Assembly (NCBI GenBank): GCA_025361105.1
Contig: JANYAW010000330.1
Coordinates: forward strand, 1-39,036
Reading direction: 5' to 3'
DNA: 39,036 bases
From: Rhodocyclaceae bacterium
GTDB lineage: Bacteria > Pseudomonadota > Gammaproteobacteria > Burkholderiales > Rhodocyclaceae
Shown one piece after another: positions 131 through 39,020 of the stretch. Each line of letters starts with the position of its first letter. The stretch's first letter is position 1. Under the pieces are notes generated by a model, which searched no databases, had not been told where the DNA came from, and was given only the letters and a program-made list of their open reading frames with translations. A program made the translations under genes and the position numbers.

Positions 131-330
131 GGGAATTCCAAGCTGATGAACAAACTGCCTTAAGCTAAGCTCGCAAACGACGCGAGAAAAGCCTCAGCGC
201 AGCGTTGATTGAGCGTAGCAAGAAAGAACTCGGCTGTCGGGCCGAGTCCCGACTCGGACGTTGAGTAATCAACTATCTACATCGGATACCCACAAAACAA
301 AAACCAACGGCGTGCTGTCAGCACCAACTA
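131..330 (+). repeat. Diverged, expanded copy of the long-form intergenic repeat; it ends in the 22-mer motif
   Basis: Shares GGGAATTC, GCGTAGC, the CTCGGCTGT..GCCGAG hairpin (230-253) and the terminal GGCGTGCTGTCAGCACCAACTA (309-330) with the copies at 13581-13686 and 21615-21708, but has extra internal sequence. Confidence 0.4.
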
Positions 331-355
331 ACACGATGCCCCATCCCCACCCCAG

Positions 356-376
356 CCCTCCCCTTGAAGGGGAGGG
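356..376. repeat. GC-rich perfect hairpin (CCCTCCCC ttgaa GGGGAGGG), REP-like
   Basis: 8-bp perfect inverted repeat with a 5-nt loop, about 90 nt upstream of the fumC ATG. It accounts for the spurious [13 protein letters not shown]. Confidence 0.5.
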
Positions 377-462
377 AGGAACCGTCCATCGGCATTCGTT
401 GGAATGTCGAACGACCGCAGTTGCGCGTACTATTCACGCATCCAAATCACCAAGGAATTCTC

Positions 463-1854
463 ATGCCCACGCCACGAATCGAATCCGACAGCTTTGGCCC
501 GATTGAAGTTCCCGCTGAACATTTGTGGGGCGCACGAACGCAGCGCTCTTTGCTGTTTTTCGCAATCGGCGCTGACCATCTGCCGTATGAACTCGTCATG
601 GCCCTGGTTCGGGTCAAACGGGCGGCGGCGGCGGCGAATCTTGAACTTCATTTGCTCGACGACGACATTGCCAAAGCGATTATCAAGGCTGCCGATGAAG
701 TGCTCAACGGACTATGGCCGGATGAGTTTCCGCTCTCGGTTTGGCAGACGGGTTCGGGCACGCAAAGTAATATGAATGTGAATGAAGTGTTGGCCAATCG
801 CGCTTCGGAATTGCTCGGCGGCGAGCGCGGAATGGCGCGCTTGGTGCATCCGAATGATCAGGTGAATTTATGCCAATCGTCGAACGATGTTTTCCCTACC
901 GCAATGCATGTCGCGGCGGTGTGGCAAATTGAATTTTCGCTGCTGCCTGCGCTGGATATTTTGATCGCGACCTTAAAAGAAAAATCTGCCACTTTTGCCC
1001 ACATCGTCAAGCTCGGTCGCACGCATTTGCAGGACGCTACGCCGATAACGCTGGGGCAGGAATTTTCTGGTTATGTGGCGCAATTGGAAATCGCGCGGCG
1101 CGGCATTGTGGCAGCATTGCCTGAGCTAAAAACCCTAGCGCTGGGCGGCACGGCAGTGGGAACGGGTTTGAACGCGCATGCTGAATTTGCACAACATGCG
1201 GTAGCGCATTTGGCCTATGTCATTGCGGACACAGCACTAAATTTCTCATGCGCAGAAAATCGTTTCGCTGCGCTGGCGGGTCACGAGCCGCTAGTGTTCG
1301 CGCACGGCGCATTCAAAACTTTGGCTACCGCGCTGATGAAAATCGCTAACGATATTCGTTGGTTGGGCAGCGGGCCGCGTGCTGGTTTTGGTGAATTGCT
1401 TTTGCCCGAAAACGAGCCGGGGAGTTCCATCATGCCGGGCAAAGTTAACCCTACGCAATGCGAGGCGCTAACTATGGTCTGTGCACAAGTTTTGGGTAAT
1501 GATGTCGCTATCAATATCGGTGGCGCGATGGGGAATTTTGAGCTGAATGTTTTCAAGCCGCTGATCGCCTACAACTTCCTCCACAGCGGGCGGCTGCTGT
1601 GCGATGCGATGCGAAGTTTTGAGGCGCATTGTGTACGTGATTTGCAAGCCAACTCGGTGCGAATAGCTGAATCGCTGGAGCGCAGTTTGATGTTGGCCAC
1701 CGCACTCGCGCCGCATATCGGCTACGACAAAACGGCCGCGATTGCCAAAGCCGCACATTTGAGCGGCAGCAGTTTGCGCGACGCGGCCATCGCTTCGGGG
1801 TTTGTGAGTGCGCAGGACTACGACCAATGGGTGGTGCCGGAGAAAATGATTTAG
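463..1854 (+). CDS. fumC: Class II fumarate hydratase
   Basis: 463 aa from the internal ATG ([17 protein letters not shown]...). Carries the fumarate lyase signature [11 protein letters not shown] and is full-length FumC-like. Confidence 0.95.
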
Positions 1855-1866
1855 TCGCACCGGTAG

Positions 1867-3249
1867 TTATTTTTGAGTGACGGCTCTGGTGACCATAGTC
1901 ATCGCTGTCACGGCCTGCGCGGCGACGTGACGGAAATAAAGTGTGACGGAAACACCCGCCATCCCAAGACCGGCAATCGCCCCCATCCAGAAACCCGCCA
2001 CGCCGCATGGTGCTCCGAAGGTATCGGTGAGACCAAGCACATAACCTCCCGCGAGACCGACACCCCACAAGGCCAGGGCGTAAATCACCATGGGTACGGT
2101 GGCGCGTTTGTAGCCGCGCAGAATTTGCGCGAATATGCCTTGCAAAGCATCAAATGGATGGAAAAACAGCACCAGCAAAAGCAGACTGGCTGCAATCCGG
2201 CGCACCGTTTCATCGGTAGTGTAAATCGCCGCCAGGTTTTGTGCATTGAGCGCTACCGCGATGCTCAAGGCGGTTGAAATCAGCATGCCGATTTTCGCCC
2301 CCAACCAGCCCGCATTCCGCGCCTTCGCCGGTTCACCGGCGCCTAGTGATTGGCCGACCAGTACGCCGGTGGCGTTACCCAGCGCCATCGGAAATGTGTA
2401 TAAAAATATGACCACACTGGAAATTATTTGGTGCGCGGCAGACGTTGCGGCACCCAGTCGTGCAACGAACAAGGCCATGAAAGTGAATGCAGTGACGTCC
2501 ACCAAGAACATCAGGCCTGTCGGCACACCGAGGCGTAAAAATTCCTTGATCGGCGTCCATTGTGGCCAGTCGAAACGGGCAAACACGCCGTAGGCCGAAA
2601 GCTGGGTTTCGCGGTAACACCATACCCAGGCAACCAACGCCAATGTACTCATGGTCAAGGCCGACGACCAGCCCGCACCGGCACCGCCCATGGCAGGAAA
2701 GGCGAGATAGCCGAACATCAAAATGGTATTGAACATCAGCTTGAGCGCCAAGCCCAAAATGTTGAGCATCATCACCGGACGCGGACGCGAAATGCCGATC
2801 GTGAAACCATAAAAAACCCGGAAGAACAACATCCCGGGAACCGACCAGGCGATGCCGCCCAGATAGGCACGCACCTTGAGCTCCAGCGTCGGTTCCAGCT
2901 GAGAAAACGCCAACAGCGGCTCGGGAAATTTCAGCGCTGTAAACGCGGCGATGGACAAAAACAAGGCCAGCCAGGCGCTTTGACGCACATCACTGCCGAT
3001 ATCAAGGTAACGCCCGGCGCCGTAGTGATGGGCGACGATGGGTGGTAAGGCGAGCAAGACGCCCATCGCCGAAACAAACACGGTGGCATAAATGCTGGAA
3101 CCGACACCAACCGCCGCCAGGTCGGCGGGCGAAATCTGACCGGCCATCAAGGTGTCGATCAGCGAATTGGCCATCACCGCCGCTTGCGCCACCAGCACTG
3201 GCCAGGTCAAATTAAACAACTGCCGCGGCAGGGAGATGGTGGGATTCAT
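1867..3249 (-). CDS. MATE family efflux transporter
   Basis: 460 aa, about 12 hydrophobic helices, with a NorM/DinF-like N-terminus (WPVLVAQAAVMANSLIDTLMAG). Confidence 0.85.
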   Translation of the reverse strand: MNPTISLPRQLFNLTWPVLVAQAAVMANSLIDTLMAGQISPADLAAVGVGSSIYATVFVSAMGVLLALPPIVAHHYGAGRYLDIGSDVRQSAWLALFLSIAAFTALKFPEPLLAFSQLEPTLELKVRAYLGGIAWSVPGMLFFRVFYGFTIGISRPRPVMMLNILGLALKLMFNTILMFGYLAFPAMGGAGAGWSSALTMSTLALVAWVWCYRETQLSAYGVFARFDWPQWTPIKEFLRLGVPTGLMFLVDVTAFTFMALFVARLGAATSAAHQIISSVVIFLYTFPMALGNATGVLVGQSLGAGEPAKARNAGWLGAKIGMLISTALSIAVALNAQNLAAIYTTDETVRRIAASLLLLVLFFHPFDALQGIFAQILRGYKRATVPMVIYALALWGVGLAGGYVLGLTDTFGAPCGVAGFWMGAIAGLGMAGVSVTLYFRHVAAQAVTAMTMVTRAVTQK

Positions 3250-3271
3250 CTTTGGATTTTAACGACTCGGA

Positions 3272-3313
3272 AGTTGGTGCCGGCTACACGCCGTGTTGGC
3301 GCTACCAACTGAT
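3272..3313. repeat. Palindromic copy of the motif family (AGTTGGTGCCGGCTACACGCC gtgtt GGCGCTACCAACTGA)
   Basis: Reverse-orientation near-copy of the 22-mer plus an inverted partner. Terminal 7 bp AGTTGGT/ACCAACT pair perfectly. Lies in the divergent MATE / oxidoreductase spacer. Confidence 0.75.
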
Positions 3314-3361
3314 GCCCTAAAATGTTTCATCCGTCCACGCCGCTTCACTTGGTCACTTTGC

Positions 3362-6300: not shown

Positions 6301-7168
6301 TGAAAGCGACACACTGATTCCGGTGATAAGAAATCCTGCGCAATTGGATGAAAGCGACGCAGTGTTTTATTTCCCCGGCTGCGGCTCGGAGCGCTTGTTC
6401 TCGCAAGTCGGACTTGCCACCCAGGCCATGCTCTGGCACGCCGGTGCAACGACAGTGTTGCCACCGGGCTATCTGTGCTGCGGCTATCCGCAAACGGCGG
6501 GCGGCGAGGAAGACAAAGGGCAGGCGATTTCCACCAGCAATCGCGTACTGTTTCATCGCGTCGCCAACACGCTCAACTACCTCGACATCAAGACCGTGGT
6601 GGTGAGTTGCGGCACTTGCATGGATCAGCTGCTCAACTATCAATTCGACAAGATTTTCCCCGGTTGTCGCTTGCTCGACATCCACGAATATTTGTACGAG
6701 AAAGGCATCAAGCTTGATGGCGTGAAGGGTGTGCAATACATGTACCACGAGCCTTGCCACACGCCGATGAAACATCACTCGGGCATCAAAGTGGTGAATG
6801 AGTTGATGGGTCAAAAAGTTGATTTGAACGATCGCTGCTGCGGTGAATCCGGCACGCTGGCAGTGACGCGGCCAGATATTTCCACGCAAATTCGCTACCG
6901 CAAGCAGGAAGAGATGGAAGCTGGTGCGGCGAAGATTCGTGACCGAAATTTGCCAATTGGTACTGGTGATACGCCGTCAAATTCCGCCGTGAAAATCCTC
7001 ACCTCCTGCCCATCCTGTCTGCAAGGTCTCGCCCGCTATTCTGATGATGCAAATGTTGAAGCCGACTACATCGTGGTTGAAATGGCCAAGGCGATTCTGG
7101 GGCCAAACTGGATGCAGGATTATTTGAGCAAAGCCGGTGCCGGTGGGGTTGAACGGGTGTTGCTATGA
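3362..7168 (+). CDS. DUF3683-containing FAD-binding and (Fe-S)-binding oxidoreductase (GlcD-like FAD domain fused to GlcF/HdrD-like Fe-S and CCG domains; YdiJ-related)
   Basis: 1268 aa from ATG 3362 ([21 protein letters not shown]). FAD PCMH motif [13 protein letters not shown]; ferredoxin-type clusters [11 protein letters not shown] and [12 protein letters not shown]; C-terminal cysteine-rich CCG repeats. Confidence 0.9.
6954..6978 (-). repeat. Intragenic near-copy of the motif (CAATTGGTACTGGTGATACGCCGTC)
   Basis: 19 of 22 matches to the reverse consensus CAGTTGGTGCTGGTGACACGCC. Translated in the host gene as PIGTGDTPS. Confidence 0.7.
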
Positions 7169-8426: not shown

Positions 8427-8703
8427 GTTCCTGTGCCTCCCTAGCGTACACGGCCAAATGAGAATGTGGCGAGCGCTGATAAGTTCATGAGCTATTCGGT
8501 TGAATTGCTGACAAGCGAAGTTTCAATCAACATCCGGCCAACTGATGTTTCGGGAAGGTAAAGAAACATTAAGGCTTGCAACGAATCGTTAGACGATGGC
8601 GACTCGCTGATATTCAGCAGGCTTAGGCGGTTGTGGCCGTAATTTCTTGACCCCAACACTTTGGTCGCCAACACCGCTTGAGCGTCGCAGCAAATCTCTG
8701 TGT

Positions 8704-9309: not shown

Positions 9310-10227
9310 CTAGCTGATTTGCTGTATGCCAGCGATCTGCCAGCCGCGTGAGCCATCGGTGGGTTTGGTCAAATGCCAGATTTCTTCAAAGGCTTGTGGT
9401 GCGTTGTGGATGTCTTCGCGCAATTGGCCGAAGTAACGCACGCTGGCGATTTGGCGATTGTCTTCGGTGACTACGCTCAATAATTCAGCATCAAGTTGGA
9501 CAACATCCGTTTGTGATTTGACGCTGCCACGCTCGTGCAATTGCATCTGGATTTCGGCGAAAACTTCCGGCGCGGTGAATTGCCGAATGTCGTCTAAATC
9601 GCCGCGATCGTTGGCGGCTTGCAGGCGAACGAAATTGAGCTTGGCTTGGCGCAGAAATCCGACAACATCGAAATCAGCGGGGATGTTGCTAACGACAGTT
9701 GGCGGCGCACTTGACGGCGTGTCACCAGCACCAACTGGCAAGCTTGGCGAAGGCGATGGTGGTATCGCATCAAAGTGCATAGGCGTTGCAGATGATCCCG
9801 CACCGGCGTATTGCGTACTCAATTCAGGCTCGCGCTTTCGCGTCAGCCAGCGGAACAAAAACAACGCCGCCATGGCCAACAAGGCAATCATCATGAAATT
9901 TGCTACGCCTTCACCCATGCCGAAATGCGACAGCAATGCGGCCAAGCCGACACCAGCGGCAAGACCCGCCAGCGGTCCCAGCCAGCGACTCATTCCTGGC
10001 TTCGCTGCCGCCGCAGCGGGTGCGGGCGCAGGTGCGCTGGTGGTGGCATTCGATGGCACGGCATTTTGCACTGGCGCAGCTGGTGGTGCAGATTGGCGTG
10101 GAGTGCTGCGCGTCATGCCAATAGACTTACCGCCACCGAGGCGCGCGGCTTGTGCGTCACTTACAGCCAGGCCAATTGTGAACGCAAAGGCGATGAGCAC
10201 CAGGAGAAAATTTTTTGAACGATTCAT
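9310..10227 (-). CDS. Tim44-like domain membrane protein
   Basis: 305 aa from ATG 10227 (MNRSKNFLLVLIAF...). Has a signal/anchor, an Ala/Pro-rich linker, a TM segment and a C-terminal Tim44-like domain. The longer ORF would overlap ubiE. Confidence 0.85.
   Translation of the reverse strand: MNRSKNFLLVLIAFAFTIGLAVSDAQAARLGGGKSIGMTRSTPRQSAPPAAPVQNAVPSNATTSAPAPAPAAAAAKPGMSRWLGPLAGLAAGVGLAALLSHFGMGEGVANFMMIALLAMAALFLFRWLTRKREPELSTQYAGAGSSATPMHFDAIPPSPSPSLPVGAGDTPSSAPPTVVSNIPADFDVVGFLRQAKLNFVRLQAANDRGDLDDIRQFTAPEVFAEIQMQLHERGSVKSQTDVVQLDAELLSVVTEDNRQIASVRYFGQLREDIHNAPQAFEEIWHLTKPTDGSRGWQIAGIQQIS
9696..9738. repeat. Complete palindromic unit of the motif family (CAGTTGGCGGCGC acttgac GGCGTGTCACCAGCACCAACTG)
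   Basis: Exact consensus 22-mer at 9717-9738 plus a left arm at 9696-9708. Terminal CAGTTGG/CCAACTG pair perfectly. Lies inside the Tim44-like CDS. Confidence 0.85.
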
Positions 10228-13580: not shown

Positions 13581-13686
13581 ACTGGGTTATCCGACGGCGG
13601 CGGAGAAGGGAATTCGCAAAGCACCGCTTTGCGCCTGTGTAGCGGCTCGGCTGTGCAATGCCGAGACTCCACGCCAGCACCAATTG
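13581..13686 (+). repeat. Long-form intergenic repeat, copy A
   Basis: Aligns with 21615-21708. Hairpin 1 is CGCAAAGC acc GCTTTGCG (13615-13633) and hairpin 2 is CTCGGC tgtgcaat GCCGAG (13646-13665). It ends in CCAGCACCAATTG, related to the 22-mer. Confidence 0.8.
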
Positions 13687-13709: not shown

Positions 13710-14663
13710 ATGCTCAGTTCCATCATTGATAGCGCACTGACGCGAACCGCTAAATTTTTTTCGCGCGAACGTATGCCCGCCGTCGCCACCATATCATTTC
13801 GACAAGTGGAAACATCCGTTGGCAATGTCCGCTTGTACGACTCCGCGCCAAATGACGCAGATGACGACGCGAGTAAACCATGTGTGGTGTTTGTGCCCGA
13901 TGGCCCGAACGTGATTGAACATCACGCGGCACTTTTTGCCTTACTTACGCCGCACCTTCGGGTGGTCTGTTTCGACATGCCGGGCTTTGGATTTTCATTG
14001 CCTAGCGCAAGCTATGGACATGGTTTGAATCAAGGCGCCGCCGCAGTGATTGGTGTGCTTGATGCGCTGGCGATTTCAAAAGCCTGGTTGGCGTTTAGTT
14101 GCGGCAACGGTTTCTATGCGATGCGCACGGCGCAGTTGGCACCCGATCGGGTGGCCGGATTATTCCTCACGCAAACTCCGGCGCTCAGTGTGATGGCACC
14201 ATGGACGCGACGTATTTTGCCGCGCGTTCTACGCACGCCGGTGCTCGGACAAATTCTGGTGTGGCTGACACGCAAGAAATTAGCCCACGGTTGGTATCAC
14301 ATTTCCTTGCCGCGTAACACGGACGCCAGCACCTATCAAACGACGGCCAATGACGCACTGACGGCAGGCGGCAGTTTTTGTTTGGCCGGCATTACACAAG
14401 GTTTGGCGCGCGAAATCGACACGCCGATGAACGGCATTCGTGCGCCGTGCACTTTGCTTTGGGGTGAGAAAGATCACTCACACAAACACATCGATCCGAC
14501 GTCCTTGCTCAAAGATATTCCACATGCCGAAATCATCCGCTTTGCTGATTGCGGACATTTTTCCGACTTGGAACAGCCAGCGCGTTATGCAGAATTGCTG
14601 CTGGCGCGGATTGGTGGGCTTAGCAACGGCGTATCGCCAGCACCAACTGGCGGGGTTGTTTAA
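13710..14663 (+). CDS. Alpha/beta hydrolase fold protein
   Basis: 317 aa from ATG 13710. CVVFVPDGPNVIEHH...FDMPGFGFS...ADCGHFSDLEQP is typical of the fold. The nucleophile position reads AFSCGNG rather than GxSxG. Confidence 0.8.
   Translation: MLSSIIDSALTRTAKFFSRERMPAVATISFRQVETSVGNVRLYDSAPNDADDDASKPCVVFVPDGPNVIEHHAALFALLTPHLRVVCFDMPGFGFSLPSASYGHGLNQGAAAVIGVLDALAISKAWLAFSCGNGFYAMRTAQLAPDRVAGLFLTQTPALSVMAPWTRRILPRVLRTPVLGQILVWLTRKKLAHGWYHISLPRNTDASTYQTTANDALTAGGSFCLAGITQGLAREIDTPMNGIRAPCTLLWGEKDHSHKHIDPTSLLKDIPHAEIIRFADCGHFSDLEQPARYAELLLARIGGLSNGVSPAPTGGVV
14608..14648. repeat. Palindromic unit of the motif family forming the 3' end of the hydrolase gene
   Basis: GATTGGTGGGC ttagcaac GGCGTATCGCCAGCACCAACTG, translated as IGGLSNGVSPAPTG. 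Confidence 0.85.
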
Positions 14664-16318: not shown

Positions 16319-16773
16319 GGGGCGATGGCCTTGTTCAAATCTTTCAATTCATCTGCAAGCATTGCAGAAAGTGTAGCGCAAGACACGGAGATGCGAGTTG
16401 GTGCTGATAACACACCGTCATTTGCCTTCCCCCAGATCGGTGCAGGAAAATGACTGTCGTCCCTCCATCTTGGAATGATATGCCAATGCAGATGCGGTAC
16501 CACATTGCCGAGGCTGGCGAGATTGATTTTGTCTGGATTGACCAAGCGCCGTAGCACAAGTTCGACCGCCAACACGACCCTCATCAAGTGCATACTTTCG
16601 CGCGGCGACAATTCACTCATTTCGGCGCAATGTTGATTCCAAATCACGCGACAAAACCCTGGGAAAGCTTGTTGCTCTGCGCCTTCAACTTTGACTACGC
16701 GACAAAGATAAAGATCGTCTTGCCAGACGAACTCGCCGCCGAGTGACTCACACAAAGGACATGGCGTATCCAT
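16315..16773 (-). CDS. HIT family (histidine triad) hydrolase
   Basis: 152 aa; histidine triad HLHWHIIPR. Confidence 0.85.
   Translation of the reverse strand: MDTPCPLCESLGGEFVWQDDLYLCRVVKVEGAEQQAFPGFCRVIWNQHCAEMSELSPRESMHLMRVVLAVELVLRRLVNPDKINLASLGNVVPHLHWHIIPRWRDDSHFPAPIWGKANDGVLSAPTRISVSCATLSAMLADELKDLNKAIAP
16395..16419 (-). repeat. Intragenic copy of the motif (GAGTTGGTGCTGATAACACACCGTC)
   Basis: Contains the exact core GTTGGTGCTG. Translated in the HIT gene as DGVLSAPTR. Confidence 0.75.
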
Positions 16774-16845
16774 AAGTCACAGAACAAAAATGAAATGGCG
16801 AGTGAATGCGTTAGCCGCTCAAGAAACTATTTAAGTTTGCTTAAC

Positions 16846-16903
16846 GGCGCCTCACCAGCACCAACTGACGAAAATCGCTTGGCTGATGCTGGTGAAACCG
16901 GCG
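16846..16903. repeat. Inverted pair of motif copies forming a hairpin downstream of psiF
   Basis: Forward copy GGCGCCTCACCAGCACCAACTG (16846-16867) and degenerate reverse copy CTGATGCTGGTGAAACCGGCG (16883-16903). CACCAGCA (16853-16860) pairs perfectly with TGCTGGTG (16887-16894). Confidence 0.75.
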
Positions 16904-16906: not shown

Positions 16907-17197
16907 TTATTTCGCCGCCGCTGCGTCAGCTTCGCATTTCTTCATGAAAGCTTTTTTGGCCGCGCCTGCCAGTGGCTTGCCAGCTTTGCTGACGGCTTTT
17001 TCAGCACAACCAGAAGCTGCCTTGGGTGCTACAGCTGGTGCCGCGCCACCTTCGCATTTTTTCATGAAGGCGGTTTTGGCCGCGCCTGCCAACGGCTTGC
17101 CGGCTTTGCTAACAGCCTTGCTCTCGCAGGTTTCGCCAGCAAAAGCAAATTGGGCTACAAAAATTGAAGCAATTGCAATACCGGTCAATGCGCGCAT
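16907..17197 (-). CDS. psiF: PsiF-repeat protein (phosphate starvation-inducible PsiF family)
   Basis: 96 aa from ATG 17197, preceded by AGGAG. Signal peptide, then two copies of KAVSKAGKPLAGAAK.AFMKKCE (120-bp period in the DNA). Confidence 0.85.
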   Translation of the reverse strand: MRALTGIAIASIFVAQFAFAGETCESKAVSKAGKPLAGAAKTAFMKKCEGGAAPAVAPKAASGCAEKAVSKAGKPLAGAAKKAFMKKCEADAAAAK

Positions 17198-17299
17198 CGT
17201 GATTCTCCTTGAGTTGGTAGTAACGAACATGCGGACGAAAGTACAGCGGGTGAATCAGGTGAAAATCTTGCGGTGATACTAAGCCATTTAGTACACTTT

Positions 17300-21614: not shown

Positions 21615-21708
21615 GACACGGCGGCGAAGCAGGGGTTTCACGATGCACTGCTTCGCGCCTGCGTAGCGGGTCGGCTGTGCAATGCCGACACTCCCCACCA
21701 GCACAAAC
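21615..21708 (+). repeat. Long-form intergenic repeat, copy B
   Basis: Aligns with 13581-13686. Hairpin 1 is GCGAAGCAG ... CTGCTTCGC (21624-21656) and hairpin 2 is GTCGGC tgtgcaat GCCGAC (21670-21689). It ends in CACCAGCACAAAC. Confidence 0.8.
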
Positions 21709-21740
21709 GGGCGAACTGTTATGCGGTGCGTGGCAATAGC

Positions 21741-23488: not shown

Positions 23489-23983
23489 CTAATTCACTCC
23501 TCCGATACGACTCAATAAACCTTGCAAGGCATGGATGACGGCCTGACGACGAATGCTTTCTCGGTCGCCGATGAACTCGCATTGCTCAGTTTGTACAGCG
23601 TGGTCTTTCATGCACCAAGCAAAGCATACGGTGCCTACTGGCTTATCAGGTGAGCCACCGGTCGGCCCAGCAACACCAGTGATCGCCAGCGAAATTTGTG
23701 CTGCTGAATGACACAACGCGCCTGCCGCCATTTCGCCTGCCGTCTCAAGACTTACCGCGCCATACGCCTCAAGCGTCGCCAAGCGCACACCAAGCATGTC
23801 GATTTTTGCTTGATTGGAATAGGTCACAAAACCACGCTCAAACCACGCTGAACTGCCCGCCGTGTGAGTGATTACTTGCGCCACCCAGCCTCCGGTGCAT
23901 GATTCGGCTGTTGCAATCGCCAGTTGGTGCTGGCGACACGCCGTCCCCAGCACGACAGAAAGTTGGGCGAGTTGGTCATCCAT
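23489..23983 (-). CDS. pncC: CinA-family C-terminal domain protein / nicotinamide-nucleotide amidohydrolase
   Basis: 164 aa; the conserved TAESCTGGW motif lies near the N-terminus. Confidence 0.88.
   Translation of the reverse strand: MDDQLAQLSVVLGTACRQHQLAIATAESCTGGWVAQVITHTAGSSAWFERGFVTYSNQAKIDMLGVRLATLEAYGAVSLETAGEMAAGALCHSAAQISLAITGVAGPTGGSPDKPVGTVCFAWCMKDHAVQTEQCEFIGDRESIRRQAVIHALQGLLSRIGGVN
23921..23945 (-). repeat. Intragenic copy of the motif (CAGTTGGTGCTGGCGACACGCCGTC)
   Basis: Exact core. Followed by CCCAGCACGACAG (23946-23958), a degenerate inverted arm. Translated in cinA as TACRQHQLA. Confidence 0.8.
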
Positions 23984-24613: not shown

Positions 24614-24738
24614 TATAACGATAAATTGAACTATGCAAGATACGGTAAAAATGAACGCCACCTTGCCGTGCGCAGACACACGGTGGTAACAATCAAACGC
24701 ACAAGGTGAGAAAATGCGGTATCAATCGAGGAGCATTC

Positions 24739-25494
24739 ATGCCTTTTATCGGTCTGGGAATTCATATTTTGGTCGCCCTATTTTTCGCCATCCACGCGAT
24801 TCGGCGCGGACAGGAGCTTTATTGGCTGATTATCTTGTTCACGTTTCCGCTACTGGGCAGTATTGTGTATTTTCTGGCGGTCTATTTGCCTGAAACAAGG
24901 CTTGAACGAGGCGCACGAAAAACCGTCGCCGCAGTCGCCAGATCACTTGATCCGACGCGAGAACTGCGGGAAGCACGGGCAGCTTTTGAATACACGGCGA
25001 CCGCACAAAATCAAATGCGGCTTGCCAAAGCCTTGCTTGAATCGGGTGCGATTGACGAAGCTGCCGATAACTACGAAGCTTGTTTGCAAGGGCCGTTTGC
25101 GTCTGATCCGGAAATCAAGTTTTTGGCGGCGCGCGCATTGCTCGAAAGTCATCGCTATGCCAACGCGGTGGCTCGACTGGAAGAGTTGCTTACACAAAAC
25201 GCCAAATTCAAACCTGAGCAAACGGCATTACTGCTCGGTCGTGCACTTGCCGGCGCGGGTCGGCAAACCGAAGCACTGGCGACGCTGAATGACGCAGTGA
25301 GTCGATTCGGCAGTTTTGAGGCACAGGCCGAATTGGCCATATGCGCGTATTGCGCAGGAGATTTCGCCACCGCTGAACGCCTCCAACACGACCTTGATCA
25401 AGCGATGCAACGATGGAGCAAACACACACGTGACATCAATGCTGAACTCGTACGCCGATTGAACGCAGCGAAAGCGTCCAAGCCAGTAAGTTAA
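24739..25494 (+). CDS. Membrane protein with PLDc_N-type N-terminal domain and TPR-like C-terminal region
   Basis: 251 aa from ATG 24739, preceded by GAGGAG. Two TM helices with LYWLIILFTFPLLGSIVYFLAVYLPE (PLD-nuclease N-terminal type), then Ala/Leu-rich helical repeats. Confidence 0.7.
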   Translation: MPFIGLGIHILVALFFAIHAIRRGQELYWLIILFTFPLLGSIVYFLAVYLPETRLERGARKTVAAVARSLDPTRELREARAAFEYTATAQNQMRLAKALLESGAIDEAADNYEACLQGPFASDPEIKFLAARALLESHRYANAVARLEELLTQNAKFKPEQTALLLGRALAGAGRQTEALATLNDAVSRFGSFEAQAELAICAYCAGDFATAERLQHDLDQAMQRWSKHTRDINAELVRRLNAAKASKPVS

Positions 25495-29790: not shown

Positions 29791-31071
29791 CTATGGTAAT
29801 AAAGATTCGAGCGCGAACAATTGCGCCGCGTTTTCGCGCTGTCGAATCAAATGTGCATCGCACCCATCGATCATCACTTCCACCGCACGGGGGCGTGTGT
29901 TGTAGTTCGATGCCATCGCCATGCCATAAGCACCAGCGGAAAGAATTGCCAGCAAATCGCCTTCATTTAGCGCCAAATTTCTATCGTGGCCGAGCCAGTC
30001 ACCGGATTCACAAACCGGGCCGACGATTTCGTAGGTTCGCTTCTGCAACGGCGTGTCATCAGCACCAACTGGCGTACTTTGTACTTTCACAATCTCATGC
30101 CAAGCGTCATACATCGCAGGTCGCATCAAATCATTCATCGCTGCATCGACGATAGCAAAGTTTTTGTCGATGCCATGCTTGAGCACATCCACGCGCGTCA
30201 ACAGCAACCCTGCATTGCCAACCAGAGAACGCCCCGGCTCAAAAATAAGTTTCTCTTTGCGGCTGGCCAATTTCGCTAGCGTCGGCGCGAGATATTCGGC
30301 AGTGCTCGGTGCAATTTCGTCGCTGCGGTAGGTGATACCCATGCCCCCGCCGACATCAATATGCTCGATGACAATGCCGTCTTCAGCAAGTGCGTCAACC
30401 AACGCCAATAATTTATCTACCGCTTCCGCCGCCGGAGCAGGATCGAGAATCTGAGATCCAATATGGCAGTCAATACCGACTACTTTGATATTTTCCAAGC
30501 TCGCGGCATGCCGATAAATGGCGCGCGCTTCGGTGTAGGCAACACCGAATTTGCTCGACTTTAGTCCGGTCGAAATATACGGGTGCGTTTTAGCATCCAC
30601 ATCGGGATTGACTCGTAGCGAAATTTTCGCGATGCACTCCAATCTTGCTGCCACCTCGTTTAGGGTCGTCAATTCGCTGGCTGATTCGATATTGAAACAG
30701 TGGATGCCAACTTTCAGCGCCTCGGTTATTTCAGCAGGCTTTTTGCCGACGCCAGAAAACACGATTTTGTCTGGCGATCCCCCGGCCGCCAACACGCGCG
30801 CCAACTCGCCGCCTGAAACAATATCGAAGCCAGCGCCGAGTCGTGCAAACACGTTGAGTACGGCAAGATTTGAATTGGCCTTGATGGCATAGCAAACCAT
30901 CGCGCGATCAATCAAGCCATGCGCGCGCAAGGTGTCGGTGTAGGACAAATAAGCTTGGGTCAGCGCGGCACGTGAATAGACATAGCAAGGCGTACCAAAA
31001 CGCGCGGCAATATCTGCTAGCGACACGCCTTCAACACAAAGGCTGCCGTTACGTTCAAAAGCTAGCGTCAT
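29791..31071 (-). CDS. lysA: Diaminopimelate decarboxylase
   Basis: 426 aa, PLP lysine context YAIKAN, GGGMGI, and VGPVCESGD. Confidence 0.95.
   Translation of the reverse strand: MTLAFERNGSLCVEGVSLADIAARFGTPCYVYSRAALTQAYLSYTDTLRAHGLIDRAMVCYAIKANSNLAVLNVFARLGAGFDIVSGGELARVLAAGGSPDKIVFSGVGKKPAEITEALKVGIHCFNIESASELTTLNEVAARLECIAKISLRVNPDVDAKTHPYISTGLKSSKFGVAYTEARAIYRHAASLENIKVVGIDCHIGSQILDPAPAAEAVDKLLALVDALAEDGIVIEHIDVGGGMGITYRSDEIAPSTAEYLAPTLAKLASRKEKLIFEPGRSLVGNAGLLLTRVDVLKHGIDKNFAIVDAAMNDLMRPAMYDAWHEIVKVQSTPVGADDTPLQKRTYEIVGPVCESGDWLGHDRNLALNEGDLLAILSAGAYGMAMASNYNTRPRAVEVMIDGCDAHLIRQRENAAQLFALESLLP
30027..30071. repeat. Intragenic unit of the motif family (..AGGTTCGC ttctgcaac GGCGTGTCATCAGCACCAACTG)
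   Basis: 22-mer at 30050-30071 with the exact core. The upstream spacer/left arm resembles those at 14608 and 16835. Translated in lysA as TPVGADDTP. Confidence 0.8.
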
Positions 31072-32386: not shown

Positions 32387-32451
32387 AGCAAGATTAAGCT
32401 CCCTCTCCCGCACGCGAGGCGCGATGGCTAAAGCGGTGTTTCGTTATTGCA

Positions 32452-32498
32452 AGTTGGTGCTGGTGATGGAATGGCCCGTTCATCGGCCACACGCCGTT
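32452..32498 (-). repeat. Interrupted copy of the motif (AGTTGGTGCTGGTGA + 23-nt insert + CACGCCGTT)
   Basis: The two halves of the reverse consensus are separated by tggaatggcccgttcatcggcca. Confidence 0.6.
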
Positions 32499-32510: not shown

Positions 32511-32541
32511 AAAAAGCCGACCTTGCGCGGTCGGCTTTTTC
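32511..32541. terminator. Bidirectional rho-independent terminator
   Basis: AAAAAGCCGACC ttgcgc GGTCGGCTTTTT: an 8-bp GC-rich stem flanked by an A-run and a T-run, between the convergent cytochrome genes. Confidence 0.85.
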
Positions 32542-32572
32542 ACGCCTAACAATTGAGGACTACTTAGGCCGA

Positions 32573-32908
32573 CTACTTAGCGCCAGCCAAAATCCACTTG
32601 ACCAAGGTCTTGATGTCGTCTGCTTTGACGGACGAATTCGGCGGCATAGGAATCGCGCCACCGTTAATTTCCTTCCAAACCTGTCCGCCCGTAGCTGCTG
32701 TGCCTTTGGTGACGCGATCAATCAGTCTGGCCTCATCGGCTGCCTTGTATTTTTTGCCGACATCTTGAAACGCAGGACCGACCAGCTTCGCGTCAACTTT
32801 GTGGCAGGACATGCAACCACTCTTGGTGGCCAAATCCTTGTTGGCGAATGCCGGCGCCGAAACCACAAGGCCACAGGCGACTAATGCCGATACGATGACT
32901 GACTTCAT
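32573..32908 (-). CDS. Monohaem class I c-type cytochrome (c-551/c8-like)
   Basis: 111 aa with a signal peptide and CMSCH. RBS AGGAG. Confidence 0.85.
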   Translation of the reverse strand: MKSVIVSALVACGLVVSAPAFANKDLATKSGCMSCHKVDAKLVGPAFQDVGKKYKAADEARLIDRVTKGTAATGGQVWKEINGGAIPMPPNSSVKADDIKTLVKWILAGAK

Positions 32909-33022
32909 TTTGAACTCCTAGCAAGTGAAAGTGGGATGACGAAATGGATTCTAGTGCTTTGGCGACGTATTTCAATAACGTACGTTGGACAAGCGCGTTG
33001 ACCGACGCAGATGATTACTGGC

Positions 33023-33415
33023 TCAAAGCCCAAATTTGTCAAAGATTTTGCCCATTTTTTCCTGCATGGTTTCGGCAGTGAATGGCTTGGTGATATAGCC
33101 CGACGCACCGGCTTGGTCGGCGGCGGTGATGTTTTCCTTTTTGGCTTCGGCGGTCACCATGAGGAAAGGCAAGCCGCTGAGCTTGGTATCCGCGCGTACC
33201 GTTTGCAGCAGGGTCAGGCCGTCCATATTGGGCATGCTCCAATCGGAGATCACGAAATCAATCCCCCCGAGTTGTAGTCGTGCAAGGGCGATAGCACCGT
33301 CTTCCGCTTCTTCGACGTTGGTAAAACCTAGTTCCTTGAGCAAATTGCGAATAATGCGGCGCATCGTCGCGAAGTCATCCACGACGAGGAACTTGAGGGC
33401 GGAGCGGTCTGCCAT
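33023..33415 (-). CDS. cheY: Chemotaxis response regulator CheY
   Basis: 130 aa, very close to enterobacterial CheY along its whole length ([15 protein letters not shown], ISDWxMPNMDG, [12 protein letters not shown], GASGYxxKPF). Confidence 0.9.
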
Positions 33416-33439
33416 GGTGCCTCCATGCAGCGATAGTCT

Positions 33440-33459
33440 GGCGGTGCGATGCCGACACT
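33440..33459 (+). repeat. Fragment of the long-form repeat core
   Basis: GGCGGTGCGATGCCGACACT matches 18 of 20 positions of GGCTGTGCAATGCCGACACT at 21673-21692. Confidence 0.5.
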
Positions 33460-33565
33460 ATGCCGCAGGGGTTAGCCCTTCAAAACGGCGAATACCGCTG
33501 AATGAACCCTCTATCAGTGGGGAAAGTCAGCGGCCATTTTCAGGCCGCGTGTATGCCAAGCGAGA

Positions 33566-35413
33566 TTACTTAAGTTGGCTTAAATCCCGTACCGCCCCGG
33601 TATCGGCTGAGGTGGTCATCGCAGCATAGGCCATCAGCGCCATCGAGACTTCGCGCTGCCGATTTGCTGGCTTCCAGGCTGTCGTGCCACGCGCGATCAT
33701 GGCTTGACGGCGTGTCGCCAGCACCAACTGATCGACTGCTAAATGAATCGTACGATTCGGGATGTCGATTTCTATCGCGTCGCCTTCTTCGACCAAGGCA
33801 ATAGTGCCGCCCGCTGCCGCTTCTGGCGACACATGGCCAATGGCAAGGCCAGAGGTGCCGCCGGAAAAGCGGCCGTCAGTGAGTAGCGCGCAGACTTTGC
33901 CCAAGCCCTTGGATTTCAAATAGGAGGTTGGGTAAAGCATCTCTTGCATGCCTGGCCCGCCTTTGGGACCTTCATAACGAACGACGACCACGTCGCCGGC
34001 GATAATTTCGTCGGCGAGGATTTTTTCTACGGCTTCTTCCTGCGATTCGCACACGCGTGCACGGCCGGTGAATTTGAGTATCGATTCATCGACCCCGGCG
34101 GTTTTGACGATGCAGCCTTTTTCGGCGATGTTGCCGGACAGCACAGCCAAGCCGCCATCTTTTGAATACGCGTTGGCCTGATTTCGAATGCAGCCATTGA
34201 CACGATCCAAATCCAGCTTGGGAAAACGTCTTTCCTGTGAAAACGCGACTTGCGTCGGCACACCACCGGGTGCAGCGCGATAAAAGTCTGTCACGGTCGA
34301 GTCGTTTGTAGTCGCCACATCCCACTGCGCCAGCGCGTCAGCCATCGTTTTGCTGTGCACAGTATACGTGTCCGTATGCAGCAAACCCGCACGGTTTATT
34401 TCGGCTAACAACGCCATGATGCCGCCGGCGCGATGCACGTCTTCCATATGATATTTCTGCGTCGCCGGTGCCACCTTGGCCAAGCAGGGAATCTTGCGCG
34501 ATAAACGGTCAATATCTTGCATGGTGAAATTGACTTTGGCTTCGTGCGCGGCGGCCAACAAATGCAACACCGTATTGGTCGATCCACCCATGGAAATATC
34601 TAGCGCAACGGCGTTTTCAAACGCCTCGAAACTCGCAATCGAACGTGGCAACACTGATGCATCGTCCTGTTCGTAATAGCGTTTTGCCAAATCAACCACG
34701 ATCCGTCCGGCACTCAAGAAAAGTTGCTTGCGATCTGCATGTGTGGCTAACAATGAGCCGTTGCCGGGTAAGGACAAACCCAGCGCTTCGGTCAAACAAT
34801 TCATCGAGTTCGCGGTAAACATGCCCGAACACGAACCACAAGTCGGGCAGGCAGAACGTTCCATCGCGGCGACATCGGCATCGCTGTTTTTACTATCGGC
34901 CGATTCAACCATCGCGTCGACCAAATCGACCATGCGATATTCGCCATGCCATTTCACTTTGCCCGCTTCCATTGGGCCGCCGGAAACGAACACCGTCGGG
35001 ATGTTGATGCGCAATGCCGCCATCAACATCCCCGGCGTAATTTTGTCGCAATTGGAAATGCATACCATCGCATCGGCACAATGCGCATTGACCATGTACT
35101 CCACCGAATCAGCAATCAGCTCGCGGCTGGGCAAGCTGTACAACATCCCGCCATGACCCATCGCGATGCCGTCGTCGACCGCAATGGTGTTGAACTCTTT
35201 GGCCACGCCGCCCGCGTCTTCAATTTCACGGGCGACCAATTGACCCAAATCTTTCAGATGTACATGTCCCGGGACAAATTGGGTAAAGGAATTGACCACC
35301 GCGATGATGGGCTTGTCAAAATCACCATCCTTCATGCCCGTCGCCCGCCACAAAGCGCGTGCGCCCGCCATGTTGCGGCCGTGAGTGGTAGTACGAGAAC
35401 GATAGACAGGCAT
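33566..35413 (-). CDS. ilvD: Dihydroxy-acid dehydratase
   Basis: 615 aa, [26 protein letters not shown]..., with [11 protein letters not shown]. Confidence 0.97.
33709..33730 (+). repeat. Intragenic copy of the motif (GGCGTGTCGCCAGCACCAACTG)
   Basis: Exact core preceded by CTTGAC. Translated in ilvD (minus strand) as QLVLATR. Confidence 0.8.
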
Positions 35414-35482
35414 GACAGCTCCGATGTATTACAGTGAGGTTAGACCGATTTTAGCGTGGCATGGCGCGGCTAAAATCAAACC

Positions 35483-36631
35483 ATGAATTCTCCCTTCGAC
35501 CAATCCCACAACCACCTCGCTTGGCATTCGTCCAAATGGGAAAAATATCGCGGCACCGACATCATTCCCTTGTGGGTGGCCGATATGGATTTCGCCGCGC
35601 CACCGGCATTGCAAGCGGCGCTTGCCGCGCATGTCGAGCATGGCGTTTTTGGCTACACCCGTGTGCCACGCAATTTGCCACATGTAACCGTGGAATATTT
35701 GCAGCGGCACTACGATTGGGCAATCGATGACGCCTCGCTAGTATGGCTGCCGGGCTTGGTACTCGGCATCAATTTAGCGGTGCGCGCGGTATGCGCCGAG
35801 GGCGACGCCTACGCGACATTCACGCCCGTCTATCCGCCGTTTTTAGACGCCGCAAAACACCAACAGCGTGGTTTGATTGCCTTGCCCTTGATCACCATGG
35901 TCAATGACGCCATGGATTTCCGCATTGATTTTGTGGCGCTGGAAAGCAGCCTCAGTGCCAATCCGCAAACACGACTGTTGTTGATTTGTCATCCGCATAA
36001 TCCGGTCGGCAAAGCCTGGTCGGCGGACGAACTGCGGCAACTCGGTGCCATCGCGGTGCGCCACGATTTGATCATTTGTAGCGATGAAGTGCATTGCGAT
36101 TTGATATTGGATGCCGCACAGCGACATCTGCCATTTGCGCTGGCAAACCCTGAATTGGCGGCGCGCACCATCACCCTGATGGGCATGGGCAAAACCTACA
36201 ACATCGCTGGTTTGGGTGTGGCATTTGCAGTGATTGAAGACGCAACGCTACGCGAAAAATTTCACGCCGCGATGACGCATTTGGTGCCGGATATCAATGC
36301 CTTTGGCTACACCGCGATGCTCGCCGCACTGACTGAATGCGAGCCATGGCGACAAGAATTACTGGCTTATTTGCGCGTTAATCGTGATTGCGTTATTGCG
36401 ACGATGCAACGCTTAAAGATTGCAGTAACACGTGTTGAGGCGACCTATTTGGCGTGGCTGGATTGCCGACATATTCCCGATGCACACCGGTTTTTTGAAC
36501 AGCACGGCGTGGGTCTATCGAACGGTGCGCCGTTTGGTGCGGCGGGATTTTTGCGACTGAATTTTGCTTGTCCGCGCAGCGTGTTAAATGAAGCACTCTT
36601 GCGCATGGAGCAATCTCTCGCGCCGATTTAA
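35483..36631 (+). CDS. PLP-dependent C-S lyase / aminotransferase class I-II (PatB/MalY family)
   Basis: 382 aa; [20 protein letters not shown] and the SDEVHCD...GKTYNIAG region (PLP Lys context) are typical of PatB/MalY. Confidence 0.85.
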
Positions 36632-36632
36632 C

Positions 36633-36654
36633 GGCGTGTTACCAGCACCAACTG
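36633..36654 (+). repeat. Intergenic copy of the motif (GGCGTGTTACCAGCACCAACTG)
   Basis: Exact core preceded by TTTAAC. Starts 2 nt after the lyase stop codon and ends 12 nt before the lgt ATG. Confidence 0.85.
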
Positions 36655-36665
36655 ATGGAATTGAA

Positions 36666-37463
36666 ATGCTAATCCACCCACAATTTGACCCCATCGCCAT
36701 TCAACTCGGCCCACTCGCCATACGCTGGTACGGCTTGATGTATTTGGCCGCCTTCCTGAGTTTTCTGTGGCTGGGCAAGCGTCGCGCACAAGCGCAATCT
36801 TGGCATGGGATTACTGTGCCGGATGTCGATGACATGCTGTTCTACGGCGTGCTGGGGGTGATTCTCGGTGGGCGCCTCGGCGAGGTGATTTTCTATCAGC
36901 CGGAATATTTCCTCGCGCATCCAAGTGAAATTCTCGCCGTGTGGAAAGGTGGCATGAGCTTTCACGGTGGTTTTTTAGGTGTGCTGTTCGCGATGGCACT
37001 GTGGGCAAAAAAACACGGCAAGACGTTTTTCCAAGTCACCGATTTCATCGCACCACTAGTACCCTTGGGTTTGATGACTGGCCGTATCGGCAACTTCATC
37101 AACGGCGAACTGTGGGGTCGGGTTGCCGATGCTTCATTGCCGTGGGCGATGGTTTTTCCATACGTTGACGCGCAACCGCGTCACCCCTCGCCACTGTATC
37201 AGGCGCTCGGCGAAGGTTTGTTGCTGTTCATTATCCTGTGGTGGTTTTCCAGCACCAATCGAAAATCCGGCACACACGGCGCGGTGTCGGGAATGTTCCT
37301 CGTCGGCTACGGCAGCCTGCGTTTCATCGCCGAATATTTCCGCGAACCCGATCACGGAATTTTCGGTATTTCGTATGTCGTCAGCATGGGGCAATGGCTG
37401 AGCTTGCCGATGGTGTTGGTAGGAATTTATTTGCTCTTGCGGCGAACACCCGTTGACGCCTGA
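36666..37463 (+). CDS. lgt: Prolipoprotein diacylglyceryl transferase
   Basis: 265 aa from ATG 36666 ([26 protein letters not shown]), with [13 protein letters not shown]. Confidence 0.93.
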
Positions 37464-37473
37464 ATCAACGCGC

Positions 37474-38334
37474 TCAGCGAAACACCACCGTCTTATTCCC
37501 ATGCAGTAACACGCGATCTTCGAGGTGATAGCGCAAGCCGCGCGCAAGCACGGTTTTTTCTATATCTTTGCCATAGCGTACGATATCTTCGACCGCGTCC
37601 GAGTGGTCAATGCGAATCACATCTTGTTCAATGATTGGGCCTTCGTCGAGCGCTTCGGTGACGTAATGGCAGGTGGCGCCGATGAGTTTGACGCCACGTG
37701 TGTAGGCCTGATGGTATGGTTTGGCACCGACGAAGCTGGGCAAAAATGAATGGTGGATGTTGATGATGCGTCCCGGATAGGTCGCGCAAAAATCTGCTGG
37801 AAGAATTTGCATATAGCGCGCCAAAACAATTGTGTCTGCCTTGCCGACATCAACAATTTTCCGGATTTCATCGAATGCGGTTTGCTTGTCAGCGGCCAAT
37901 ACCGGCACATGATGGAAGGGTATGCCGTGCCATTCGACCACACCTTGAAAGTTGAGATGATTTGAAATCACCGCGACGATGTCGCTGTTCAATTCGTTCG
38001 ATTGCCAACGCGCCAGCAAATCATATAGACAATGTTCTTGTTGACTGACCATCACCACCACGCGCTTTTTTTCCGCCGAATCGGTGATGCGCCAATCCAT
38101 TTTCAGTTCGGCGGCGAGTGGCGCAAAGCGCTGACGAAATTCATCAACACCAAACGCTAGCGAATCGGCACGCACTTCGATGCGCATGAAATAACGCTGA
38201 TCAATATCATCTGCGTGAAAGCTCGATTCAAGCAGCCAACCTTGGTGTTCAGCGATGAAGGCGGTGACGCGACTGATGATGCCGACTTGATCGGGACAAG
38301 AGGCGACCAGCGTGTAAAAGCGCGCCTTGTGCAT
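37474..38334 (-). CDS. purU: Formyltetrahydrofolate deformylase
   Basis: 286 aa with an N-terminal ACT domain and a formyltransferase domain (NIHHSFLPSF). Confidence 0.93.
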   Translation of the reverse strand: MHKARFYTLVASCPDQVGIISRVTAFIAEHQGWLLESSFHADDIDQRYFMRIEVRADSLAFGVDEFRQRFAPLAAELKMDWRITDSAEKKRVVVMVSQQEHCLYDLLARWQSNELNSDIVAVISNHLNFQGVVEWHGIPFHHVPVLAADKQTAFDEIRKIVDVGKADTIVLARYMQILPADFCATYPGRIINIHHSFLPSFVGAKPYHQAYTRGVKLIGATCHYVTEALDEGPIIEQDVIRIDHSDAVEDIVRYGKDIEKTVLARGLRYHLEDRVLLHGNKTVVFR

Positions 38335-38942
38335 CAGATGCGTTTTGATGCTTTGTCAATTTCGGCACGCATTTCGGTGTAGCTTAACGCGATGGGGAAC
38401 TGTGGAAATTCGGCAATCACGTTTTGTGGCGGATGAAACAAAATTCCCGCATGCGCTTCACTCAACATCGCGGTGTCGTTGTAAGAATCACCCGCTGCGA
38501 TGACTTTGTAGTTGAGTTCTTTGAAGCGCTGCACGGCTTCCTTCTTTTGGTTGGGCATGCGCAAGTGGTAGTCGACCACGAAGCCCGCAGCATCTGTTTC
38601 CAGCTTATGACAAAACAATGTCGGCATGCCCAAGTGCGCCATCAAAGGCATGGCGAATTCGTAATACGTATCCGACAAAATAATGACCTGGAAATCGCAT
38701 CGTAATTCATCCAAAAATTCACTCGCGCCGGGCATCGGACGCATGTCGCCAATCACGGCTTGAATATCGGGCAGACCGAGTTTGTGCTGGCGCAAAAGAT
38801 TCAAACGGAATTTCATCAAGCTGTCGTAATTCGGCTCATCACGGGTAGTACGACGTAGCTCTGGAATTCCCGTGCGTTCGGAAAACTCTATCCAGATTTC
38901 GGGAACCAGGACACCTTCAAGATCAAGACAAACTAGTTGCAC
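38334..38942 (-). CDS. thrH: Phosphoserine phosphatase / homoserine phosphotransferase ThrH
   Basis: About 202 aa from GTG 38942, with GGAGAA 7 nt upstream. The track ORF starts at TTG 38978. CLDLEGVLVPEIWI... and AAGDSYNDTAMLSEAHAGILFH closely match ThrH. 1-nt stop/start overlap with purU. Confidence 0.85.
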   Translation of the reverse strand: MQLVCLDLEGVLVPEIWIEFSERTGIPELRRTTRDEPNYDSLMKFRLNLLRQHKLGLPDIQAVIGDMRPMPGASEFLDELRCDFQVIILSDTYYEFAMPLMAHLGMPTLFCHKLETDAAGFVVDYHLRMPNQKKEAVQRFKELNYKVIAAGDSYNDTAMLSEAHAGILFHPPQNVIAEFPQFPIALSYTEMRAEIDKASKRI

Positions 38943-38993
38943 GAGCGTTCTCCAGTTTCGGCTATGGTACGGCGGCAAGGTTTAGCGCCACGA

Positions 38994-39020
38994 CCAAATT
39001 TTACTGGTGTCGTGCCGGTC
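38994..39020 (-). repeat. Degenerate copy of the motif (CCAAATTTTACTGGTGTCGTGCCGGTC)
   Basis: Most similar to the variant at 6953-6978 (CCAATTGGTACTGGTGATACGCCGTC). Lies upstream of thrH. Confidence 0.4.

Follow-up and report, generated by a model that had tools for sequence, protein, structure and literature searches.

The closest described counterparts of the repeat reported here are the DNA uptake sequences (DUS) of the Neisseriaceae and the uptake signal sequences (USS) of the Pasteurellaceae, words that recur on both strands in hundreds to thousands of copies. In these two families, the protein with a preference for the word is a component of the competence/type IV pilus machinery for uptake. 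The Rickettsia palindromic elements (RPE) are reportedly palindromic insertions of 100-150 bp that lie in frame within protein-coding genes. Repeats that are palindromic and lie outside genes include the BIME, NIME (dRS3) and BOX mosaics as well as the repetitive extragenic palindromic (REP) sequences and REPINs, the last two being tied to a gene for a REP-associated tyrosine transposase (RAYT). Finally, HIP1 (GCGATCGC) of cyanobacteria is a hyper-abundant 8-bp palindrome found inside genes, whose function is unsettled (PMC5861425). Sequence-specific uptake signals are known from only the Neisseriaceae and Pasteurellaceae (bioRxiv 10.1101/2025.10.24.684340; PMC2817400). Here, we describe a bipartite word repeated throughout a 39,036-nt stretch of a Rhodocyclaceae bacterium (GCA_025361105.1, contig JANYAW010000330.1, positions 1 to 39,036; the whole stretch is henceforth the window) and in its relatives. 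We tentatively propose that it may be a lineage-specific, DUS/USS-like recognition word maintained by drive plus selection.

The core word in the window reads ACGGCGT-N5-CAGCACCAACTG and is present in 11 full and 3 split copies in 39 kb, with about 0 expected by chance. A preliminary description of this DNA, made from its letters alone, had counted 10 exact occurrences of the 11-mer CAGCACCAACT, 7 on the forward and 3 on the reverse strand. We recovered all of them at the same places, against a mean of 0.01 in 100 dinucleotide shuffles. Likewise, a 22-mer has 8 window copies at ≤3 mismatches (0 expected), and the 24-mer ACGGCGTGTCACCAGCACCAACTG, which widens the core by two bases, has 11 at ≤5 mismatches (Table 1). 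The layout is asymmetric: boxes of 7 and 12 nt, ACGGCGT and CAGCACCAACTG, are nearly invariant and enclose a free 5-nt centre that varies chiefly by transitions. Conservation over the 24 positions ranges from about 78 to 100% of copies, except for position 11 (64% A, 34% G). Retrieval by a strict pattern inflates these values at the pattern's 20 fixed positions, yet positions 1-2, which lie outside it, are still 94-98% conserved. The borders are sharp, with neither terminal inverted repeats nor target duplications, and the flanking sequence is unique to each copy apart from a weak AT-rich extension (wwtyR ... RCraaw). The overall word length is roughly 24-30 bp, or about 36 positions with the flanks. 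The mismatch spectrum is bimodal, with 21 copies at 0-5 mismatches and almost none at 6-7, and the short form of the motif has no significant hairpin, folding no better than shuffles (z = -0.4 and +0.2).

A scan of 185,579 species-representative genomes with the strict 20-position pattern returned at least 54 matches spread over many contigs. Among the matches listed, the source was two metagenome-assembled genomes (MAGs) only, both named 'Rhodocyclaceae bacterium' (JADKHX01 and JADKDD01); they derive from Danish activated sludge. In the 417 kb fetched, 94 copies were found at ≤5 mismatches. In the clade, the word recurs on both strands at a density of roughly one every 3 kb. The window represents a third species, whose LysA shares 85% identity with the JADKHX protein and 76% with that of Sulfuritalea, and the motif is present in lineages down to 75% LysA identity (L063 and L064; loci outside the window carry our L numbers). 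No copy at ≤6 mismatches was seen in 42 kb of the outgroups Sulfuritalea hydrogenivorans and a Rhodocyclales MAG. The carriers are uncultured sewage-sludge Rhodocyclaceae that form a clade akin to Sulfuritalea, and the motif appears to be specific to this clade. The preliminary description had held that copies confined to the window, or counts without excess over a Markov expectation, would speak against a genome-wide signal; we found neither, with copies lying on many contigs elsewhere. Because nanopore data underlie two of the genomes, both MAGs, one might object that the word arose by chance, by local duplication or as an artefact of assembly or adapters. However, the shuffles expect about 0 copies, the flanks are unique, and the copies, which diverge mainly by transitions, are read in frame and occur on many contigs of several genomes. 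Moreover, short-read contigs from other, independent projects carry the same lysA copy; hence, the motif is no long-read artefact, and a nanopore adapter or barcode origin was rejected on the same ground. We give this whole group of explanations practically no credence.

Certain further occurrences concern the reach of the motif. The consensus has no match in plasmid and phage collections. It was found once in IMG/VR, as a lone near-perfect copy in a 589-aa open reading frame (ORF) of a phage-like contig of 49% GC (L001) with a tail-protein gene nearby; 3-4 copies would be expected there at the host density. There is also a possible dialect in which the right box TCAGCGT replaces ACGGCGT and the left box is the same. 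It occupies both orthologous sites (lysA and pncC) in a lineage of 77% identity (L066), as well as two contigs of one metagenome sample (L068 and L069), the latter of which additionally bears M1-type copies (described below). A GC-rich dialect in the Sulfuritalea outgroup was considered and rejected, as the matches at 7 mismatches resemble normal GC-rich coding DNA and do not recur.

The majority of copies are found inside genes. As initially noticed, seven window copies lie in seven unrelated coding sequences (CDSs) and are translated in four frames; 7 of the 11 short copies thus fall in identified CDSs. Across the carriers, 75 of 114 copies (about 66%) lie within open stretches of ≥450 nt. 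All six frames are used, most often those giving PVGAGDTP (28), GVSPAPT (16), QLVLxTRR (13) and TACxQHQL (12), and the position of copies along ORFs is U-shaped, with an enrichment near the ORF ends. Direct reading bears out that the consensus is stop-free in five of six frames, and at core position 11 a frequent A>G variant opens the sixth as well. For comparison, 65%, 49% and 34.5% of uptake sequences lie in ORFs, and those of Haemophilus, Actinobacillus and Neisseria favour poorly conserved positions (PMC2817400).

Alignments to homologues indicate how the coding copies arose. In six of the seven conserved proteins tested, the motif has left no insertion or deletion. PncC shows no gap at the motif against solved PncC/CinA homologues, nor does IlvD against solved dihydroxy-acid dehydratases, which read ELAxRR at this point. 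DapB and CysN likewise show no gap, and the E. coli DapB already reads CRQH. MurE has no net insertion, and one of its homologues reads PVGA. In LysA, the peptide VGA(D/G)DT is found in all 15 Rhodocyclales sequences aligned: Sulfuritalea encodes VGADDT in GC-rich codons (GTC GGC GCC GAC GAT ACG), whereas all motif-bearing lysA lineages instead share GTT GGT GCT at the synonymous sites. Since the homologues of LysA, DapB, IlvD and MurE already encode a similar peptide, the copies arose by substitution. The short motif was thus written over resident sequence at already similar or loosely constrained sites, not inserted, and the earlier statement that conservation acts at the level of DNA rather than protein holds.

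These observations bear on the proposal, made at the outset, that the repeat might be an RPE-like or a RAYT-mobilized REP-like palindromic element. The motif does share with REP/REPIN-RAYT, BIME, NIME (dRS3) and BOX repeats a short, abundant unit with optional hairpin modules and a clustering in spacers with other hairpin repeats; the second hairpin of the long allele (see below) even resembles a REP stem-loop. In contrast to them, it has an asymmetric, non-palindromic core, two thirds of its copies are intragenic, and the coding copies are not insertions. Two Y1-transposase queries also gave no tblastn match to RAYT/IS200-like genes in about 520 kb, although this test is a weak one. A conventional REP/REPIN family mobilized by a RAYT (a Y1 HUH transposase) is, in our estimate, very improbable despite the high copy number and small size. 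With regard to RPEs, the resemblance is one of in-frame repeats in genes and is restricted to the rarer long allele, to which this part of the proposal applies in part; the dominant short form adds no residues and is not palindromic. Miniature inverted-repeat transposable elements and other insertion elements differ from the motif, which lacks terminal inverted repeats and target-site duplications and offers one case of presence versus absence.

The short copies are also shared between lineages. In the syntenic regions compared across the window, L054 (JADKHX), L055, L063 and L064, copies in pncC, lysA, ilvD and upstream of lgt occupy the same sites, and every short copy found in a relative is matched by a window copy at the same site. 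This site conservation spans lineages down to 75% LysA identity and includes synonymous and intergenic positions. The orthologous pncC site is occupied in L054, L055 and L063; the ilvD copy has counterparts in L054 and L064; and the lysA copy is short in L055, L063 and L064, with expanded forms elsewhere. Upstream of lgt in L063, the copy is a perfectly conserved island next to an upstream intergenic flank that cannot be aligned. Throughout, the arms of orthologous copies are perfect and the 5-nt centre is variable. As a separate observation, the pncC of JADKHX (L054) has a 15-nt in-frame insertion directly after its motif copy that is absent from three other lineages; the five residues it adds are TPPIT or PPITI, according to where the gap is placed.

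With respect to geometry, the preliminary description had pointed to density, strand and replichore bias as informative; beyond the density given above, orientation proved balanced (42 copies on + and 44 on -) and showed no link to GC skew, and replication polarity of the KOPS- or Chi-like kind was rejected for this reason. Window copies are spaced more evenly than under random placement (coefficient of variation 0.57, P = 0.02). An insertion sequence bounded by direct motif pairs 1.1-1.4 kb apart was rejected as well: the enclosed segments share no homology, and the spacing therefore reflects gene length. An array of binding sites for an abundant, sequence-specific chromosomal protein, the third option offered initially, is compatible with these data. 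Such a protein might act in nucleoid organization, topology control or the marking of self-DNA, with the sites kept by purifying selection rather than uptake drive. The bipartite 7 + 12 nt boxes with a free centre, the conserved orthologous sites, the even spacing without polarity, and the restriction to one clade with a possible dialect would all suit it. It also overlaps with the uptake option, since an uptake signal, too, is a site bound by a protein. Nevertheless, selecting each of about 1000 sites strongly enough to fix synonymous changes is demanding, and none of the chromosomal proteins known to us relies on asymmetric 24-bp sites inside genes in numbers of about a thousand. The known arrays (parS, matS, SlmA and Noc sites, Ter) have few, mostly palindromic sites. 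We consider such an array unlikely.

About 15% of the copies are not simple but split at two fixed points, CAGTTGGTGCTGGTG^ACAC^GCCGT, by nested hairpin modules. The resulting alleles are discrete: beside the short form (S), M1 has a 23-nt hairpin at the first point (6 loci, one in the window), M2 has 39 nt at the second (2 loci), and L has 31 nt and 38 nt at both (8 loci, two in the window). The arms common to all are 15 nt and about 8 nt, and modules were never found outside motif arms. L folds better than shuffles (z = -2.65), and its hairpins show compensatory pairs, e.g., CG 3 / GC 3 / UA 1. This recasts certain sites of the preliminary description: the supposed near-copies at 13667-13686 and 21690-21708 are actually arms of split L alleles, and the 11-mer at 32452-32498 is real but belongs to an M1 allele with an internal module, not to a simple copy.

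The alleles differ at orthologous sites. In the LysA of JADKHX (L054), an in-frame L allele lengthens the protein by 20 aa where four other lineages have S, and another in-frame L allele sits in the DnaE2 loop of L042. The recX-lptB spacer of the window has an L allele, in place of which the syntenic JADKHX locus has a degenerate short-like sequence (16/24, by hand alignment). The window M1 copy, the sole presence/absence case, lies within a stretch that the orthologous spacer lacks in L054 and L055. As judged from these comparisons, module-bearing alleles appear to have replaced short alleles at pre-existing sites, which would imply arm-guided copying between loci. Three side observations concern the modules and their surroundings. 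First, the DnaE2/ImuC-like ORF of JADKHX in L042 combines its L allele with a short copy (SVGAGDTPL) in one error-prone polymerase gene. Second, at the corresponding site, the lysA of a lineage with 77% LysA identity (L062) has a 71-aa in-frame expansion that contains, between the left arm and CACGCCGT, two related units in tandem, both with a hairpin. Third, another hairpin repeat (CCCTCTCCC ... GGGAGAGGG) lies at most about 60 nt from a motif copy in 4/4 cases; in L005, two motif copies flank it within the ORF of a P-type ATPase.

The alleles raise the alternative of a selfish modular repeat family (S, M1, M2, L) that spreads by arm-guided copy-paste over arm-like resident sequence, through a dedicated site-specific enzyme or template switching. 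S would then be the minimal allele, and homogenization, not function, would keep the arms identical. The discrete alleles with shared arms and modules confined to two fixed points, the differences at lysA (S versus L) and recX-lptB (L versus degenerate S-like), the M1 copy in a stretch missing from two relatives, the RPE-like in-frame L alleles of LysA and DnaE2, the compensatory pairs, the bimodal mismatch spectrum and the adjoining hairpin repeat are all in keeping with this. It is harder to reconcile with the lack of indels at 6/7 protein sites, and the fact that every short copy of a relative has a window counterpart means that turnover is very low for a selfish element. Further, no transposase or recombinase genes were found among the window ORFs scanned; the search for Y1/RAYT-like genes in about 520 kb, weak as noted, was negative; and we know of no enzyme that overwrites 24-nt patches at merely similar sites. 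On balance, we find such a family doubtful. Its boldest form, a new kind of selfish DNA consisting of a 24-30 nt patch with optional hairpin cargo that overwrites arm-like loci rather than inserting, strikes us as decidedly doubtful. If true, it would allow an in-frame life inside essential genes with their lengths unchanged, its copies being kept identical by concerted evolution.

We favour the uptake-signal reading, at the tentative level stated above, because only DUS/USS, among known systems, share the full combination of features: intragenic copies without indels, persistence at orthologous sites, a lack of polarity, evenly spaced copies, restriction to a clade and possible dialects. As with the motif, many DUS/USS copies are intragenic, in several frames and at tolerant positions, they hold conserved positions in core genes, and they are clade-specific with dialects; USS also have AT-rich flanks. 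HIP1 is similar as a hyper-abundant intragenic word conserved at the DNA level, but the motif is three times longer and asymmetric (PMC5861425). What the genomes demonstrate is a population-genetic pattern, to which uptake, a receptor and competence would be added by analogy. Under this proposal, a sequence-specific protein would prefer word-bearing DNA, and cells would more often acquire, by uptake and recombination, those alleles of dead relatives that match the word better (molecular drive). Copies damaging proteins would be removed by selection, and the word would accumulate via point substitution at tolerant or already similar sites, where it would be long retained. The modules might be a by-product: among about a thousand identical arms, a module gained by one copy could spread to others, either by arm-guided ectopic template switching or gene conversion, or as a small non-autonomous element targeting the motif centre.

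Several points weigh against an uptake signal. The motif has 24 highly conserved positions in two boxes (about 36 with flanks), two to three times any known uptake signal, in place of the 9-12 bp core expected of DUS/USS, and it occurs about once per 3 kb as opposed to about once per 1.2 kb. A gradual drive might have left more intermediates than the bimodal mismatch spectrum displays. PurH is the exception among the proteins: the loop that contains the motif exceeds that of distant homologues by 12-13 residues. Inverted terminator pairs, common for DUS and named in the DUS/USS-like option of the preliminary description, account for only 6 of 106 copies; substitution without indels, orthologous sites, even spacing, lack of strand bias and confinement to a single clade do fit that option. 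Nor would an uptake model lead one to expect alleles whose modules invariably sit at two fixed internal points and nowhere else; accounting for them takes one further assumption. Furthermore, the host family, Rhodocyclaceae, is one without known uptake specificity, and the carriers are uncultured. As for machinery, the part of the sequence covered contained pilMNOPQ in two outgroup loci only, L061 and L065, the motif-bearing genomes being covered in part. In the literature, no indexed paper contains the motif sequence (a sequence search gave only unrelated primers) and none joins 'DNA uptake sequence' with 'Rhodocyclaceae'; we found no published description of the motif family or its nested modules.

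The window itself is an ordinary chromosomal stretch of housekeeping genes with 54% GC, namely fumC, a MATE transporter, an FAD/FeS oxidoreductase, ubiE/ubiJ, phoR, hprK, ptsN, rpoN, lptB, recX, recA, pncC, pgpA, an RND pump, lysA, ilvD and lgt. It holds no Rfam families or tRNAs, and a phage origin was rejected, with no megablast match for 25 kb of the window. Looking up its RpoN as an exact protein likewise retrieved no record. The remaining near-copies and half-sites of the preliminary description fared unevenly. That at 16883-16903 is an imperfect, partial inverted copy (Table 1), and that at 3298-3313 is an inverted left-box fragment with a borderline position weight matrix (PWM) score of 12.2, shuffled sequence reaching up to 11.5. 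Those at 38994-39020, 8534-8547 and 37249-37261 score below 8 and were dropped. Beside the motif, a small secreted-looking protein of 2-3 tandem repeats (unit C-E-x-K-A-V-S-K-x-G-K-P-L-A-G-A-A-K-T-A-F-M-K-K-C-E) varies in repeat number between lineages, and the gene neighbouring the window's HIT gene differs in L063. A TPR-repeat gene without a motif copy inside lies between pgpA and the RND pump; in L054 and L055, the corresponding spacer is only about 180 nt and lacks this gene.

Table 1. Motif copies, split alleles and accompanying features in the window and in other loci
Feature	Location	Strand	Mismatches to 24-mer	Context
S copy	window 307..330	+	5	intergenic, upstream of fumC
S copy	window 3271..3294	-	4	between divergent MATE transporter and FAD/FeS oxidoreductase genes
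Inverted left-box fragment	window about 3300-3307			adjoins the 3271 S copy
S copy	window 6954..6977	-	3	C-terminal part of 1291-aa oxidoreductase ORF, read PIGTGDTP
S copy	window 9714..9737	+	perfect	low-complexity linker of Tim44-like protein, read PVGAGDTP
L allele	window 13593..13686	+		arms and two nested hairpin modules, after phoR stop; strand given for the ACGGCG...CAACTG reading
S copy	window 14626..14649	+	2	C-terminal tail of alpha/beta hydrolase, read GVSPAPT
S copy	window 16395..16418	-	4	C-terminal part of HIT-family ORF, read GVLSAPT
S copy	window 16844..16867	+	2	intergenic
Imperfect inverted partial copy	window about 16878-16897			follows the 16844 S copy
Secreted-looking repeat protein	window 16907-17230	-
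Secreted-looking repeat protein	L063 18794-19231
L allele	window 21618..21710	+		recX-lptB spacer
S copy	window 23921..23944	-	1	pncC residues 14-21, read TACRQHQL
TPR-repeat gene	window 24706-25494	+
S copy	window 30048..30071	+	1	lysA residues about 333-341, read PVGADDTPL
Second hairpin repeat	window 32401-32410
M1 allele	window 32451..32497	-		arms and hairpin module
S copy	window 33707..33730	+	1	ilvD C-terminal region, read QLVLATRR
S copy	window 36631..36654	+	1	between aminotransferase stop and lgt start
Lone copy, phage-like contig	L001 4849-4872
Second hairpin repeat	L005 4074-4112
Second hairpin repeat	L013 4801-4873
Second hairpin repeat	L027 4889-4912
DnaE2/ImuC-like ORF	L042 3-3020
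In-frame insertion in pncC	L054 16368-16382
In-frame expansion in lysA	L062 3486-3720
TCAGCGT variant	L066 1512-1535
TCAGCGT variant	L066 2782-2805
TCAGCGT variant	L068 4623-4646
TCAGCGT variant	L069 6501-6524

Whatever its role, the word is usable as a specific marker of the carrier clade in metagenomes. Were it not an uptake signal, it would be the longest word-type repeat that we know of in genes without indels, and its nested in-frame hairpins would pose a new puzzle. If the uptake reading is true, it would constitute a third, independent case of sequence-specific uptake signals, would extend uptake specificity to environmental Betaproteobacteria, abundant members of wastewater treatment communities, and would supply a concrete 24-mer for binding and uptake assays. 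The much longer, bipartite signal would then mean that uptake specificity, or other genome-wide DNA recognition, evolves repeatedly and in very different forms.

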